The position numbers and the translations under genes are program-made. A stretch of DNA of 64,000 nucleotides, from positions 1 to 64,000 of IMG/VR virus record IMGVR_UViG_3300020577_014401. The stretch is one strand, 5' to 3'. This DNA is from a virus (Duplodnaviria; Caudoviricetes). Shown piece after piece: positions 1,982-42,503 of this stretch (positions are counted from its first letter, which is position 1; each line of letters starts with the position of its first letter). The notes under the pieces were generated by a model. It searched no databases, was not told the origin of the DNA, and saw only the letters and a list, made by a program, of their open reading frames with translations.

Positions 1982-4477
1982 ATGCGACCCAACGACCTGC
2001 CCCAGGATGGTGATCTGTTGCTGTGCTTCGCGCTCGGCGCCCGGGCGGGCAAGTATTTCCCGAAACAGGCTAATGTCCCGCCGGAGTTCAACGAGATCCC
2101 GTCTGGGTTGACTCACGTACCCGACAACCATCGGGCGATCGAGATCACCCCTGGCCTGATTCCTGCTTCGATGGGCGGCATGTTCGGAGCGGCCGCGGCC
2201 AGTCCGCTGATCCCGATCGCTGCTTTGGGAGGTGCCGCGTTCGGGGCGCTGAAGTCGAGGCCCGGTCAAGCCGTGAATGACATTGCGAAAGGCACGATGA
2301 CCGGCCTGACCGGCGGGCTCGGGGGCGCCGCTGGCGCCGCTTTGGGGGGCGCTATCGGATCGCAATACCAGGGCGACCCGGTTACCGGCCTTCTCGTCGG
2401 TAGCGGAGTCGGCGGCCTGGGGGGGCTCATCGGCGGGCTGCATCTCGGCAATCGGGTCCTCAAAACTCCGGCTGATCGCGAGCAAGCGGTCACCAAGCAA
2501 TCCGACTTCCTCAGCTCCGCCCAGGACGGTCTCAACCAAGCTGGTGACTGGCTCAACCAGAACGCCATCCAACCAGGGGTCGCGGCGTTCAACAAGCACG
2601 TCACCGACCCGATTTCGAACCGCGCCAGGACGAACCTGGGGATCCCGGAAGGCGGTTTCCAGGGGTTCATGGAACGCAACCCGTGGGCGATCGCACCGAT
2701 CATCGGCGGTGGCATCGGCGCCGGGGTCGGTCTGCTCGGGAGCGGGGGCAAGAAACGCAAGGACGTTCTCGGTTCGGTGCTTCGCGGCGGTCTCTTGGGT
2801 GCCGGTGCCGGCGGTCTCGCGTGGGGTGCCCGCGAGCTCTTCGGCGGCAACCAGGCGCAACCACCCGCGCAGGAGACTCAGAAAACCATCCCGGAAGCCC
2901 CGAAGAACGTCACGCCCGGCGCCGATCTCCGTGCCGAGAAGCCTGAACTGAATCTTTTGCAACGAAAGAAGACAGTGACGGACTCGTGGGGCAACTCCGG
3001 ACAAACCAATGCGTTCGTGGACGGTCCGCTTCAGGCCGCCAAGAACCAGTACGCCACGTTGCGCATGGGCGGCAACATCGATGCCGCCAGTGGCAAGGCT
3101 TACGACGACGCGTACCGGGCGGTCACGAACGCCGAGGCCAATCAGGACTGGGAGGCGGCGGCGCAATACGCCAAGAAACTTCAGGAACTGAACGATTTTC
3201 ACAGCAACTTGATCGGTAACAACCTGAAAGCCCCGAACGTCCAAGACGTGGTTTCCGGGCTTGGTTCCGGACTCGTACCTGGCTTCGGCGGGATCGCTGG
3301 GGCGGCCGGTCAACTAGGCTCGGCAGCCAGGCCCGGTCCGGCCCCGTCGAATTTCAGTTTGTTCGGCCGACCCATTACTCGGGGGGCTGACGGACTTACG
3401 CCGTCTGCTCCTGATGCTCAACCCCAAAGCATGGTTGACTTCGCCAAGCAACTCCGTCCGGAAGTCGAGGCCAACAGCCAGGCGGTCAACGAAGCCGACC
3501 CGAGTGCCATGGGGCAAGTCCCGTGGTACCGATCGGCGGCCGGGAGGAGGTCGCTTGAGACGGCCGGTCTCGGCGGGCTGCTTGGCCGCGGCAGCCAGTT
3601 GGCCGCGAACGCCACTGGTACCCGCATCGGGCCCGACGCCCGGTACTACAACCAACTCGAGAAGGGTGTCACTTCTCCGGCTCCGACCCGTGGTCTGCTC
3701 GGTCAACCGCTCCGCCTTATGGACGCCGCCACAAGGATCGGGCCGGAACAGGCCAACCAAAAGGCGTTGACCCAGATCGCGTCGGTGCTGAACAGCGGGG
3801 CGACCGGCAAGTTTGTGACCCCCGATGAAGTCGGCCAAGCGCTTCGCGATCCGAACCACGCACTTCGACCCAGCGTGGTCGGTGCGATCCGAGGTTTGGG
3901 GGGTCGGACGGGCGAAGGCGTCCTCCCGGTTGCGGCTCCCGATCGATTCGATCTCCGCCCGGCCGCTGACAATCCCCTTTTCCTGAAGAGTCTCCAGGAG
4001 CGCCTGGTGAAGCCGCCGTCGAAAGCCATGGCGCAACAGCAAATCGATGATCTTCGTGAGCAGCTTCGGGGGAACATTCCGATGAAACCGGAAACGATGA
4101 AGTTGCTCACTGCTCCCGACGGACCGTTCGGAAGGGCGGCGCACAACGCCAAACTCCTGCCGCCGAGCGGCAAGTTTGGTCCGTCGTTGCCGATCCACGG
4201 CCCGACTCATGCGACTACGCCGATGGAGCTCTTGAAGAAGAACACCCTCGGCCGGCTCAAGTCCCCGACCGCCTTGGGTATGCTCGCCGGCGGTCTGACG
4301 CCGAGCATCCAAGCCTACGCCAGTGGTGAACGGACCAAGAACACGCTCAGCGAACTCTTGAGCGGCTCTGCCCCCGGCGCACACGACCTGGGCGACCCGA
4401 AAGTTCAGCAACGGCTCCTCGAATGGTTCCGTCAGCGCCAACCGAGCGCCGATGAACGTGAAGCTCAGTTGCGATAA
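1982..4477 (+). CDS. glycine-zipper-rich putative internal virion/ejection protein (831 aa)
   Basis: Several GxxxG hydrophobic segments (GLTGGLGGAAGAALGG, IIGGGIGAGVGLLG); directly upstream of the prohead protease. Confidence 0.6.
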   Translation: MRPNDLPQDGDLLLCFALGARAGKYFPKQANVPPEFNEIPSGLTHVPDNHRAIEITPGLIPASMGGMFGAAAASPLIPIAALGGAAFGALKSRPGQAVNDIAKGTMTGLTGGLGGAAGAALGGAIGSQYQGDPVTGLLVGSGVGGLGGLIGGLHLGNRVLKTPADREQAVTKQSDFLSSAQDGLNQAGDWLNQNAIQPGVAAFNKHVTDPISNRARTNLGIPEGGFQGFMERNPWAIAPIIGGGIGAGVGLLGSGGKKRKDVLGSVLRGGLLGAGAGGLAWGARELFGGNQAQPPAQETQKTIPEAPKNVTPGADLRAEKPELNLLQRKKTVTDSWGNSGQTNAFVDGPLQAAKNQYATLRMGGNIDAASGKAYDDAYRAVTNAEANQDWEAAAQYAKKLQELNDFHSNLIGNNLKAPNVQDVVSGLGSGLVPGFGGIAGAAGQLGSAARPGPAPSNFSLFGRPITRGADGLTPSAPDAQPQSMVDFAKQLRPEVEANSQAVNEADPSAMGQVPWYRSAAGRRSLETAGLGGLLGRGSQLAANATGTRIGPDARYYNQLEKGVTSPAPTRGLLGQPLRLMDAATRIGPEQANQKALTQIASVLNSGATGKFVTPDEVGQALRDPNHALRPSVVGAIRGLGGRTGEGVLPVAAPDRFDLRPAADNPLFLKSLQERLVKPPSKAMAQQQIDDLREQLRGNIPMKPETMKLLTAPDGPFGRAAHNAKLLPPSGKFGPSLPIHGPTHATTPMELLKKNTLGRLKSPTALGMLAGGLTPSIQAYASGERTKNTLSELLSGSAPGAHDLGDPKVQQRLLEWFRQRQPSADEREAQLR

Positions 4478-39431: not shown

Positions 39432-40274
39432 ATGATTCGCGCTTTCTCTTGGATCTTGTTCGCGGCGCTGGCCATCGCCAGTTGCCAGGTGCAATCCGCC
39501 GATCCGTTGCCGACGCCCAAGTCGACGGTCAAGTTCCCGGTTCTCCCGGTGAAGCCGGTCGACGACAAGAAGGCCGAGCCGACGACTCCGCCGGCCAATG
39601 ACATCCCGGTTCTCGACGAGGGCGTCTACTACGTCATCCACGACGACGCCCCGTTCATCACGTACGCATCGCCGGCGAATTTGGTCCACATCACCAAGAC
39701 GACCGGGCCGGTCAAACTGCTCGGCAAGTTCATCGACGGCACCGGCGACTTCGAAGAGAAGGAGTACAAGTCGAAGAACGTCACAATCATCCGTGCCAAG
39801 GCTCAAGGCCGGGTCGAGCTGATCGTCAACGCCGTCGGAGCTGTCGACGAGTCGACCGCCCAGCGGAAGTTGATCGACGTGATCTCTGGTCAAGGGCCGA
39901 TCCCGCCGCCCAAGCCGGTGGTGCCGGTGACGCCGACGGAAGTGAAGTCGTTCCGGGTGATCTTCGTGATCGAATCGGGCTCGACTCCGACCGCCGCCCA
40001 GCTCGGCGTGTCCGACGCGAAGCTGGTTCGCGACTACCTGACTGCGAAATGCACCAAGGAGGGCGAATGGCCGGGCTGGCGCCGGTACGACCCGGACGCC
40101 GATGTGACCAACGAGCAGCCGACGATGAAGGCGTTGTGGGAGGCTGTGAAGCCGAAGATCACTTCGACCCCTTGCCTGGTTGTCGAGACCAACGGGAAAG
40201 TCGACATTCTTCCATACCCGAAAAACTCAGTCGAGAGTCTGTCGTTGCTCAAGAAATATGCGGAGGGCAAATGA
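39432..40274 (+). CDS. secreted/lipoprotein with Pro linker and thioredoxin-like C-terminal domain
   Basis: Signal peptide (LAIASC), GPIPPPKP linker, FRVIFVIES...TPCLVV. Confidence 0.6.
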   Translation: MIRAFSWILFAALAIASCQVQSADPLPTPKSTVKFPVLPVKPVDDKKAEPTTPPANDIPVLDEGVYYVIHDDAPFITYASPANLVHITKTTGPVKLLGKFIDGTGDFEEKEYKSKNVTIIRAKAQGRVELIVNAVGAVDESTAQRKLIDVISGQGPIPPPKPVVPVTPTEVKSFRVIFVIESGSTPTAAQLGVSDAKLVRDYLTAKCTKEGEWPGWRRYDPDADVTNEQPTMKALWEAVKPKITSTPCLVVETNGKVDILPYPKNSVESLSLLKKYAEGK

Positions 40275-40837
40275 CTTCGGTGATCCAGTCCAACCAAAAC
40301 GATCATCTTCTGCGTCGTCTGTGGCGGCAAATCGCCATTGATGGCCAAAGTGGCTGTTGGGTGTGGACTGGAACAATATCCACAGACCACATGCACTACG
40401 GCCAGGTCAGTGTCAATAACCGAGCACAGAAAGTTCATCGGTTGATGTACACACTGATGGTCGGCCCCATCCCGACCGGGCTCTGTGTTCTTCACAAATG
40501 CGACAACCCGCCATGCTGCAATCCTGGTCATTTGTTTACTGGGACGAACGAAGACAACACAAATGATCGCCACAGAAAAGGCAGATCTGCCCGAGGATTG
40601 GCGAGTGGTCGGCATACAAAACCGGAGCGGACAGCGAGAGGGAGTAGGAACGGTCGTTCGAAGCTGACAGAATCGAAAGTGGCGACGATCCGCGATCGCT
40701 ACGCGACCGGTAACGTATTCCTGAAAACTCTCGCCAAAGAGTACAATGTTTCGACTCAAGTTGTGTGGAGGATTGTTCGGGGTATCAGTTGGAAAACCTT
40801 CGAAGACAAGACTTCACCCACTAAAAGGACTCAGTGA
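40271..40837 (+). CDS. HNH homing endonuclease
   Basis: CWVWTG...KVHRL...VLHKCDNPPCCNPGHLFTGTNEDNTND plus C-terminal HTH; AT-richer. Confidence 0.9.
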   Translation: MTSVIQSNQNDHLLRRLWRQIAIDGQSGCWVWTGTISTDHMHYGQVSVNNRAQKVHRLMYTLMVGPIPTGLCVLHKCDNPPCCNPGHLFTGTNEDNTNDRHRKGRSARGLASGRHTKPERTARGSRNGRSKLTESKVATIRDRYATGNVFLKTLAKEYNVSTQVVWRIVRGISWKTFEDKTSPTKRTQ

Positions 40838-40840
40838 ATC

Positions 40841-41674
40841 ATGGCCATCGAACTCTACCGCGGGAAAATTCCGATCATTCGCCGTTCCCTGAACGACGGA
40901 TTCATCCGCGGCACGCCGGACGACCTCCCGAGCACCGGCTGCGTCGAACGCGACTACGACATCGACCCGGTCGCGATGGGTGACTCGCCGGCGGCGATGA
41001 AGCTTGTCGAAGACAGCGAGCTGGACGCCATCTTCGACGAACAGGAAGCGCAGGAATCCTCTCTCGAGCACATGTACGTGCGAGATGGAAGTCCGGCGTT
41101 CGAGTTCCTCGACCAGAACGGATTCCCCGACTGCTGGTTCCACTCGACGGCCCACGCCCTGATGGTCGACCGGATGAAGCAGGGGCTCCCTCCGGTCCGG
41201 TTCAACGCCGTGGCCGGCGCCACGCTGCTCAACCAGACCAACGGCGGCTGGTGCGGCCTGTCGATGAAGTTCATCCGCGAGAAGGGCTGCCCGGTCATCG
41301 GCAGCGGCCCCGGCGAGTGGCCGTACCACACCCGCAGCAACCACGACTCGCCCGAACTCCGGGCGAACATGGCCAAGTACAAGTCGCTCGAGGACTGGTA
41401 CGACTTGGGCCGTCGTGAATGGGACCAGAAGCTGTCGCAGCGACAGCTCCGCACGCTCGGGTGCGGCAACATCCCCGTTCCGACGGATTACAACAAGTAC
41501 GGCCACAGCATGCTCATGATCCGCCTGGTGCGGATCGAGAAGGGCCACTGGGGCCGTCTCACGCTGAACTCCTGGAAGGGGTTCGGCTACCTGGGCCTCT
41601 GCGTGATCCCGGAGACGACGGCCGACGTCAACAACGCCGTCGCCCTCAGGGTGAGTTCGTCCACCTACAAGTGA
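40841..41674 (+). CDS. papain-like (C1-type) cysteine peptidase
   Basis: DQNGFPDCW (oxyanion Gln, catalytic Cys), GHSM (His), LNSW (Asn). Confidence 0.8.
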   Translation: MAIELYRGKIPIIRRSLNDGFIRGTPDDLPSTGCVERDYDIDPVAMGDSPAAMKLVEDSELDAIFDEQEAQESSLEHMYVRDGSPAFEFLDQNGFPDCWFHSTAHALMVDRMKQGLPPVRFNAVAGATLLNQTNGGWCGLSMKFIREKGCPVIGSGPGEWPYHTRSNHDSPELRANMAKYKSLEDWYDLGRREWDQKLSQRQLRTLGCGNIPVPTDYNKYGHSMLMIRLVRIEKGHWGRLTLNSWKGFGYLGLCVIPETTADVNNAVALRVSSSTYK

Positions 41675-41684
41675 GGTCGTCGCC

Positions 41685-42170
41685 ATGAGACTCGTCTACG
41701 CCCTTGTCGCCGCGGCCCTGACCGCAACGGCGGCCGCCGGCGCCGAACCGCCCAAGTTCGTCGTCACCAACAAGATCCCGCAGAGCTTCCAGATCGAGAA
41801 CAAACTCTCGGTCAAGAAGACGACCTGCGGGTGCGCCTCGACTGGCAAGTGCGCGTGCTGGAATGACGAGTGCGACTGCCCGGCGTGCGGCCGCGGCGCC
41901 AAAGCCAAGCAAGGCGGCCCGGGAGGTGCCGCCGTCAACCGCCCTTTCGATCCGGCGGTTACCACGCCTCCCACGAATGCCCAAACTGCGGCACCTACGG
42001 ACTCGAAACCCGCATCGTCCGCGGGTACACCGGATCCGGAGGACACTACCATTCCTGCCCCAAGTGCTCAACCACTTGGTGGCATTCAGACCCTGGGCGG
42101 TAACTGCGCCAACGGCCAGTGCCAGTCCGCTTCGTCGAAGCCGGTTTCCCGATTCCGGCTTTTCCGATAA
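41685..42170 (+). CDS. secreted Cys-rich protein; dual-coding with a -1 frame Zn-ribbon
   Basis: Signal peptide, CxC cluster, C-terminal CANGQC...RFRLFR. Confidence 0.7.
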   Translation: MRLVYALVAAALTATAAAGAEPPKFVVTNKIPQSFQIENKLSVKKTTCGCASTGKCACWNDECDCPACGRGAKAKQGGPGGAAVNRPFDPAVTTPPTNAQTAAPTDSKPASSAGTPDPEDTTIPAPSAQPLGGIQTLGGNCANGQCQSASSKPVSRFRLFR

Positions 42171-42212
42171 TCTGACCACGATTCGCCCGACCAACCATCC
42201 GGAGACAGCGAC

Positions 42213-42503
42213 ATGAGCCTCTTTTCCGATCTCAAGGCCCTGTACGACGCGATCAGCGCCGACCAGCGGAACTGGAAGACCATCCTCGACGCTTTCATGA
42301 AGGTGGCCGCCCACTTCTTCTCGGACTCGCCCCCGACGGTCGGCGACGACGGCGAGACCGGCGACGCCAAGGAACTGGCTCAACAGATCCTCGCCAAGTG
42401 CGAAGCGCCGGCCACGTTCGGGGCCGACGGCGTCGGCGCGAACGGCGAGAAGATCCTCGAGTTCATCAAGCTGGTGCTGCCGCTGATCATCAAGTGGCTG
42501 TGA
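42213..42503 (+). CDS. small protein with amphipathic C-terminus
   Basis: GGAG SD; ILEFIKLVLPLIIKWL. Confidence 0.65.
   Translation: MSLFSDLKALYDAISADQRNWKTILDAFMKVAAHFFSDSPPTVGDDGETGDAKELAQQILAKCEAPATFGADGVGANGEKILEFIKLVLPLIIKWL

Follow-up and report, generated by a model that had tools for sequence, protein, structure and literature searches.

Sequence comparisons support a conserved programmed -1 ribosomal frameshift nested within an uncharacterised gene of large GC-rich phages

The window analysed here covers the opening 64,000 nucleotides of an IMG/VR viral contig of 110 kb, whose G+C content is around 62%. It carries a frame-0 ORF, P0001, whose modules run in the order signal peptide (hydrophobic leader), EPPKFVV-type motif, Cys-rich block, spacer and Cys-loop/basic-aromatic tail. 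The frame-0 features, with the evidence used to delimit them, are as follows.

41685..42170, plus strand: frame-0 ORF P0001, 161 aa, start ATG 41685, stop TAA 42168-42170
41685..41744, plus strand: predicted Sec-type signal peptide, residues 1-20 (read from the sequence)
41826..41888, plus strand: Cys-rich block in frame 0, eight Cys, residues 48-68 (alignment to relatives)
41949..42101, plus strand: frame-0 spacer of Pro/Thr/Ala/Gly/Ser, 51 residues (dN/dS, AF2 and GC3)
42102..42167, plus strand: frame-0 tail, a C-x4-C loop (CANGQC) and a basic/aromatic C-terminus (homology to single-frame tails)

The P0001 leader has a positive n-region, an Ala/Leu/Val h-region and the sequence AGA preceding Glu21, and a comparable hydrophobic segment starts every member of the family; export via this leader is therefore predicted. 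The Cys-rich block aligns with those of the single-frame proteins P0070 and P0059 and of the frame-0-type proteins of L003 and P0077-P0083, and ten frame-0-type homologues of P0001 were found in total. The gene adjoins genes for a papain-like peptidase and for small membrane-protein-like products, and these neighbours are conserved. P0001, its neighbours and its relatives gave no matches to any PHROG or Pfam family, and no Rfam match was found within 41600-42300. An ORF in the +1 frame (41863-42216) was also considered; its GC3 is 0.52-0.66, hence it is probably a chance ORF.

A second coding segment overlaps the frame-0 spacer in the -1 frame.

41948..42103, plus strand: -1-frame segment after the proposed shift, 51 codons and TAA 42101-42103
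about 41960-42085, plus strand: zinc-ribbon-like domain within the -1 frame (phmmer and AF2)

Between 41867 and 42100 the -1 frame is uninterrupted, giving a 78-residue reading that contains two CPxC (CxxC) knuckles. A phmmer search with this reading against 1.84 billion cluster representatives returned 74 relatives at E <= 1e-3 (best 5.5e-11), typically 45-55% identical to it, and most of the matches to the domain reach the C-terminus of the matched protein. An alignment of 72 sequences gives the invariant or near-invariant pattern H-x-C-P-x-C ... H-x-H-x-C-x2-C-x3-W-x-H, every residue of which is present in the window; its eight conserved His/Cys residues would suffice for up to two metal sites. 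AlphaFold2 models the domain as a small confident fold, with a mean pLDDT of 89 and a pTM of 0.70. Judged by these comparisons, the -1 frame encodes a real domain of an uncharacterised family. A preliminary description of the locus had read this frame as coherent up to its stop at 42103, and the relatives, the full set of invariant residues and the dN/dS ratios given below all agree with that reading. The same description had called the domain a Zn-ribbon. The two knuckles fit this assignment, but its score against Pfam DUF7563 is 24.4 bits, under the cut-off of 27, and the best Foldseek matches in the PDB, which are zinc ribbons (Rpp21, NrdR, ZifS and RPB9), all have E > 2 and none is significant. 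Hence the domain is described here as zinc-ribbon-like, and we refrain from assigning it to the zinc ribbon families. A word-based protein search with the -1 ORF found no proteins of similar length. Gene callers report only the 161-aa frame-0 protein, and the zinc domain of this clade is thus missing from protein databases.

The single-frame relatives are 85-230 aa long and consist of a leader followed by a linker and the zinc domain, all in one frame. Many of them share the EPPxFVV-type motif or the Cys-rich block of the window's frame-0 N-terminus. The clearest comparison is with P0070 and P0059, which the window matches in frame 0 through ...NRPF and in the -1 frame from RSGGYH... onwards; the switch of matching frame places the frame change on the heptamer C_CCT_TTC described below. 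P0029, P0057, P0059, P0067 and P0019 continue past the zinc domain, without a change of frame, into a segment made up of a C-x4-C loop and a basic-aromatic end, and this segment is clearly homologous to the tail that the window reads in frame 0. The one-frame order of these relatives indicates that the window gene consists of three segments, namely an N-terminus in frame 0, a domain in the -1 frame and a tail in frame 0. Codon composition changes along the gene in the same way. The frame-0 GC3 is 0.87 upstream of the heptamer, the overlap has 0.52 in frame 0 vs 0.72 in the -1 frame, and past the -1 stop frame 0 has 0.73, while neighbouring genes have 0.77-0.92 in their own frames. GC3 by segment hence also suggests that the coding frame switches at the heptamer. 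In AF2 models the frame-0 spacer has pLDDT values below 50 and zero secondary structure, on a shallow alignment, and the whole frame-0 product reaches a pLDDT of 44 on a 10-sequence alignment, which fits disorder but is weak evidence for it.

Three features around the junction bear on a possible shift.

41922..41927, plus strand: internal SD-like GGAGGT, 14 nt upstream of C_CCT_TTC
41942..41948, plus strand: slippery heptamer C_CCT_TTC, the proposed -1 shift site; frame-0 codons CGC CCT TTC, in X_XXY_YYZ phase
41954..41968, plus strand: weak 4-bp hairpin, 5 nt past the heptamer (z -0.4 to -1.3)

The heptamer and the GGAGGT are both present as first described. C_CCT_TTC is the sole in-phase heptamer with Y = A/T in the ORF, and the 47 clear ORFs of the window (17,233 codons) hold six of these, C_CCT_TTC included. 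The density of GGAGG is 0.0012/nt, which puts the chance of one within a 6-position span at 0.7%. The combination of heptamer and SD-like motif thus exceeds what chance would give. CCT makes up 9% of Pro codons in the window, and GGA and GGT 14% and 15% of Gly codons, so that the heptamer and the SD-like motif are both made of disfavoured codons. SD-type starts precede 19 of 58 of the phage's own genes vs a background of 9%; the host is presumed to be a planctomycete. An upstream SD is known to stimulate -1 shifts at spacings of 9-14 nt (PMC5009743), and all-pyrimidine U_UU.Y-type motifs, with which cognate A-site re-pairing is possible, form a shift-prone class in E. coli (PMC4066793). Background read-out in the latter study was about 0.05%. 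The hairpin at 41954..41968 is probably not a significant stimulator.

A second in-phase heptamer, C_CCG_GGA (41918-41924), was rejected as the main site: heptamers with Y = G shift poorly, and the P79S difference in the close relative P0002 abolishes the motif. The GG dipeptide underlying the SD-like motif also occurs in at least one single-frame relative, P0070, which is known as a protein.

A DNA-level search of IMG/VR with a family alignment identified three large phage contigs, L003, L004 and L005. L003 and L005 have the window's layout, with leader, Pro/Thr/Ala/Gly spacer and tail in frame 0 and the domain in the -1 frame, where it ends at a TAG abutting the tail; the Cys block is in frame 0 in L003, and L005 is without it. 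An in-phase G_GGA_AAA lies at 3983-3989 in L003, with GGAGGT 14 nt upstream, and an in-phase C_CCA_AAA at 3980-3986 in L005, with GGGGGT 11 nt upstream. Neither ORF contains an in-phase X_XXY_YYZ other than the junction heptamer. The SD stimulator arrangement proposed for the window, of the dnaX/IS type, is thus found again in both. The predicted trans-frame products are 139, 136 and 101 aa (window, L003 and L005 respectively), each with normal family architecture. L004 is single-frame and tail-less, and this gene, together with the other single-frame genes for which DNA was examined (L009, L010 and L013), has neither an in-phase heptamer nor an SD-like motif at the junction. On the 3' side, L005 has a 7-bp hairpin 6 nt downstream of the heptamer (z -3.0) and L003 has none; a downstream hairpin common to the window, L003 and L005 was not found, only the L005 hairpin being clear.

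Both contigs are well diverged from the window, with the domain around 60% identical and the frame-0 proteins 34-39% identical, and the syntenic upstream papain-like peptidase of L005 is 44% identical to the window's. A profile search with the frame-0 proteins found P0077-P0083, which have the leader/Cys-block/spacer/tail layout and of which P0078 is L005's own protein. Two-frame DNA was seen for three members (window, L003 and L005), and the layout of P0002 and P0077-P0083 is deduced from the frame-0 protein. Here we used a compatibility scan, in which positions 1 and 2 of every frame-0 codon determine positions 2 and 3 of the -1 codon. All nine of the nine frame-0 proteins scanned allow the full hidden ligand pattern (H-x-C-x2-C ... 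H-x-H-x-C-x2-C-x3-W-x-H) and a stop in the -1 frame, and the pattern matched none of 74 controls and none of 2000 shuffles. The tail is kept in frame 0 across all eleven two-frame members. The preliminary description had suggested checking homologues for the CCCTTT and for both frames: both frames and an in-phase heptamer are kept in the clade, but the heptamer sequence itself differs (G_GGA_AAA and C_CCA_AAA). It had also named homologues with only one frame, or an assembly indel, as grounds for rejection; both frames are retained in L003 and L005, and the arrangement recurs in independent assemblies.

The closest relative, P0002, comes from a different data source (Logan) and is 94% identical to P0001, with nine residue differences and the same 161-aa frame-0 ORF. 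An explanation by assembly or sequencing indels, one at 41942-41948 and another near 42100, that created a false frame split can draw on the position of the junction within a short C/T run. Two errors of opposite sign would be required, however, and the independent assembly behind P0002 has a frame-0 ORF of identical length, while two other IMG/VR contigs and seven database proteins have the same layout with different junction sequences. We therefore give this explanation a vanishingly small probability.

Slippage by RNA polymerase at C3T3 (G3A4 and C3A4 in the relatives), such that some mRNAs lose or gain a base and encode the fusion, would be expected to yield the same protein, and the shift sites are indeed pairs of short homopolymers. 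The runs here are 3-4 nt, whereas the described bacterial cases of productive transcriptional slippage involve runs of some nine A or T (PMC5009743). Furthermore, the phase of the heptamer and an SD-like motif at 11-14 nt are ribosomal features that are irrelevant to a polymerase, and slippage during transcription is accordingly most improbable.

P0001 or P0002 as query gave no related loci in viral or metagenome contigs, the upstream peptidase as query found none either, and a further scan of viral contigs with another alignment (A8) had no matches. A metagenome scan with alignment A5 found only single-frame, tail-less members. Two scans of representative prokaryote genomes detected zero family members, from which the family may be mainly phage-borne. 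A tree of the 45-column domain alignment, which bears on whether the two-frame layout had a single origin, was poorly resolved.

The zinc domain could also be an independent gene embedded in the frame-0 ORF and translated from its own internal start, as Rz1 is in Rz; embedded genes of this kind occur in phage lysis cassettes, and this precedent speaks for the idea. The preliminary description held that the -1 frame has no good start of its own, and this holds: its only start candidates are GTG 41870 and GTG 41885, neither of which has an SD. L003 likewise has GTGs at 3932 and 3938 in this frame, and all of the candidate GTGs are without SD. They arise incidentally where GAG TGC encodes conserved Glu-Cys pairs in the frame-0 Cys block. 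In L005 the 156 nt before the junction contain no ATG, GTG or TTG in the -1 frame, and in the window no start or near-cognate codon follows GGAGGT. Moreover, a stand-alone product would miss the hydrophobic leader of the family, and homology is continuous through the junction. Taken with these observations, independent initiation is very unlikely.

In order to compare selection on the two frames, dN/dS was estimated in the overlap from codon alignments of the window, L003 and L005. The -1 frame gave values of 0.34-0.44 and frame 0 values of 1.18-1.28. The zinc domain is hence under purifying selection in lineages in which its frame differs from that of the start codon. Amino-acid constraint in the overlap is confined to the -1 frame, and frame 0 is an unconstrained Pro/Thr/Ala/Gly spacer. 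The claim that both frames look meaningful over ~150 nt thus stands for the -1 frame but not for frame 0, whose conserved part is the tail at 42102-42167. For the tail and the N-terminus dN/dS was saturated. The comparison of P0002 with P0001 follows the same trend. Six of the differences fall within 11 positions of the linker and tail, and the three in the 51-codon overlap (V92A, N98S and Q100R) are frame-0 second-position changes that by parsimony fall on third positions of -1 codons and are silent there (GGT to GGC, GAA to GAG and CCA to CCG).

These ratios bear directly on a further explanation, in which a base was lost near 41942 and the frame restored near 42100, leaving the zinc domain as a dead relic and the 161-aa protein as the sole product. 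The frame-0 ORF is intact and reaches the conserved tail, and a C4 run ahead of TTT, shortened by one C, would itself yield the heptamer pattern. In addition, single-frame relatives have no stop codon across the zinc domain in the frame equivalent to the window's frame 0, so an open frame 0 alone is no proof of selection for the long product. A relic would not, however, be expected to show purifying selection among the two-frame lineages (0.34-0.44 vs ~1.2 in frame 0), nor invariant ligands kept in three sequenced loci and compatible with eight more frame-0 proteins. The layout also persists where the flanking peptidase is only 44% identical, and the heptamers of the three loci are all different, all in phase and all preceded at 11-14 nt by an SD-like motif, unlike what relic junctions would show. 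Such a compensated double indel is therefore highly improbable. As for the long product, retention of the tail in all eleven two-frame members argues that it matters too, an argument to which we attach lower weight because single-frame genes, too, have this frame open over the domain.

Collectively, these comparisons make it very probable that the gene at 41685-42170 yields two proteins through programmed -1 ribosomal frameshifting, which would be conserved in this clade and previously unannotated. The signals, the homology through the junction, the shared layout and selection on the -1 frame are observed in the sequences; we infer the ribosome as the slipping agent, as well as the role of the SD, the efficiency of the shift and the export. 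In the proposed scheme all ribosomes would initiate at ATG 41685 and translate everything from the signal peptide through the EPPKFVV-type motif to the Cys-rich block. On reaching C_CCT_TTC some of them would slip one base back, with the Pro and Phe tRNAs re-pairing on CCC and UUU; simultaneous slippage at the heptamer is the preferred mode, and it would probably be aided by base-pairing between the anti-SD of 16S rRNA and GGAGGT, which lies 14 nt upstream. The shifted ribosomes would translate 51 codons of the -1 frame before terminating at TAA 42101-42103. Their product, a 139-aa protein ending in the zinc-ribbon-like domain, would have the architecture that is standard among single-frame members. 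For unshifted ribosomes the same stretch would encode an unstructured Pro/Thr/Ala spacer, followed by the C-x4-C loop and basic-aromatic tail, giving 161 aa. One exported N-terminus would thus be joined to either of two C-terminal modules, which in some relatives co-occur on one polypeptide. The preliminary description had proposed a shared N-terminus with two alternative Cys-containing C-termini, and both the homology across the junction and the two-frame layout in L003 and L005 speak for it.

Whether both products are functional, so that the cassette acts as an either/or switch in which the shift rate sets the ratio of domain isoform to tail isoform, is in our view evenly balanced. A second shift, of +1, at the -1 stop to rejoin the tail was considered and rejected: the codons at the -1 stops are CGG TAA in the window and CAC TAG in L003 and L005, the codons before the stop allow no re-pairing, and there is no SD 3 nt upstream.

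The arrangement resembles E. coli dnaX (tau/gamma) in having an in-phase heptamer, an upstream SD, an optional 3' hairpin and a shifted product that is the shorter one. In dnaX, however, the -1 frame ends after one codon and truncates the protein only, whereas here a 51-residue folded domain would be added. The heptamers differ as well, A_AAA_AAG in dnaX compared to C_CCU_UUC here and G_GGA_AAA and C_CCA_AAA in the relatives, and the 3' hairpin is clear only in L005. The IS3/IS911 orfA-orfB system likewise combines a heptamer with an upstream SD and fuses an N-terminal module to a different functional domain. An upstream SD is estimated to be present in 56% of IS elements (PMC5009743), and varied heptamers are used across the IS3/IS911 family (PMC4066793). 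In contrast to the present gene, orfB extends far beyond the orfA stop, while here the -1 ORF lies wholly inside a frame-0 ORF that has its own frame-0 tail, and the protein family and genetic context are unrelated.

The tail assembly chaperone G/GT pair is also produced by a conserved -1 shift in a tailed-phage gene, which yields two proteins with a common N-terminus. Tail assembly chaperones account for 2397 of 2476 annotated phage frameshifts in one data set (PMC10885494). The G/GT shift adds a C-terminal extension and the genes lie between those for tail tube and tape measure, whereas here the shifted product is shorter and the gene follows a papain-like peptidase. The absence of any PHROG or Pfam match, the peptidase neighbour and the shorter shifted product agree with the placement of the gene outside the tail-chaperone context in the preliminary description. 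Like Rz1 in Rz, the zinc domain is a nested second frame in a gene for an exported protein, in a phage region with small membrane-protein-like genes. Rz1 has its own start site and signal sequence, while the nested frame here is without a start and is homology-continuous with the upstream frame-0 part. Finally, the single-frame family (P0070, P0059, P0029 and L004) shares the leader, the optional EPPxFVV-type and Cys-rich modules, the zinc domain and the optional C-x4-C tail, and differs in using one frame where the window's clade has the domain at -1 relative to both flanks.

By this analysis the candidate signals are of the dnaX and IS3/IS911 type, and the gene family and context are new and lack annotation. 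The layout is unusual in that the -1 ORF is nested in the frame-0 ORF and the end modules of the two products are contiguous in some single-frame relatives. We know of no described frameshift cassette with such a nested, domain-skipping layout, which suggests switching between two C-terminal modules without gene duplication. The gene would be a well-supported case of frameshifting outside the tail chaperones, in an uncharacterised gene family of large GC-rich phages. It also falls in a blind spot of annotation, as the frame-0 protein alone is called in every member. The natural variants of the cassette, with three heptamers, SD spacings of 11-14 nt, presence or absence of a hairpin and single-frame sister genes, offer a ready comparative system for the origin and turnover of shift sites.

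Module shuffling seems to have affected the N-termini of the two-frame genes, judging by the A10 alignment, which comprises P0001 (the window's frame-0 protein), L003, L005 and P0077-P0083. Here an EPPKFVV/ADFVVVNN-type motif and a DLDPQILLELAK-type helix motif alternate, and the Cys-rich block is entirely missing from L005. The spacer, the zinc-ribbon-like domain hidden in the -1 frame and the tail are constant throughout.

Relatives that carry the zinc domain in the same frame as the N-terminus may bear on its history. In three of these single-frame genes (L009, L010 and L012) the frame matching the window's frame 0 contains no stops across the domain (76-107 codons), and hence the codon usage of the domain may have pre-adapted it to read-through in a second frame. 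A domain tree, itself poorly resolved, clusters the two-frame members with the tail-less single-frame members L004, P0022 and P0046 and places the tail-bearing single-frame members in a distant clade. This grouping gives a hint that the tail and the domain may not have been passed on as a unit but combined through recombination. One further relative lacks part of the domain:

L002 225-455, lower-GC viral contig: 76-residue single-frame relative in which the first H-x-C-x2-C knuckle is lost.

The half-domain that survives is preceded by an in-phase C_CCA_AAA, located at 323.

A second heptamer lies close to the main slippery site of the window:

41918-41924: in-phase C_CCG_GGA, 24 nt 5' of the main site; shares bases with the SD-like motif.

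A slip at this position would likewise lead into the open -1 frame. In P0002, the 94% identical relative of P0001, the heptamer is abolished by a P79S change. With Y = G it is a poor shifter.

Downstream of its own heptamer, L005 has a potential RNA structure:

L005 3992-4012: perfect 7-bp hairpin (GGCUCCC/GGGAGCC) with a 7-nt loop, beginning 6 nt past the heptamer (z -3.0).

This 7-bp hairpin is absent from the window and from L003. The residues encoded at its position are identical in the frame-0 proteins P0077, P0080 and P0081, whose genes may share it.

The third forward frame is also open across the gene:

41863-42216, + strand: +1-frame ORF, 117 codons without a stop.

Its 3' end forms an ATGA overlap with the start of the next gene at 42213. 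Its GC3 is only 0.52-0.66, which makes it probable that the GC-rich sequence stays open in this frame by chance.

Immediately upstream of the papain-like peptidase gene the window encodes a putative nuclease, preceded by an exported protein:

40049-40837, + strand: HNH endonuclease ORF (Pfam HNH_3, E 7.9e-12).
39432-40274, + strand: exported-protein ORF, in a different frame, covering the 5' part of the HNH ORF as listed.

Because of this overlap the real start of the HNH ORF is probably internal to the listed ORF. Its C-terminal region is HTH-like.
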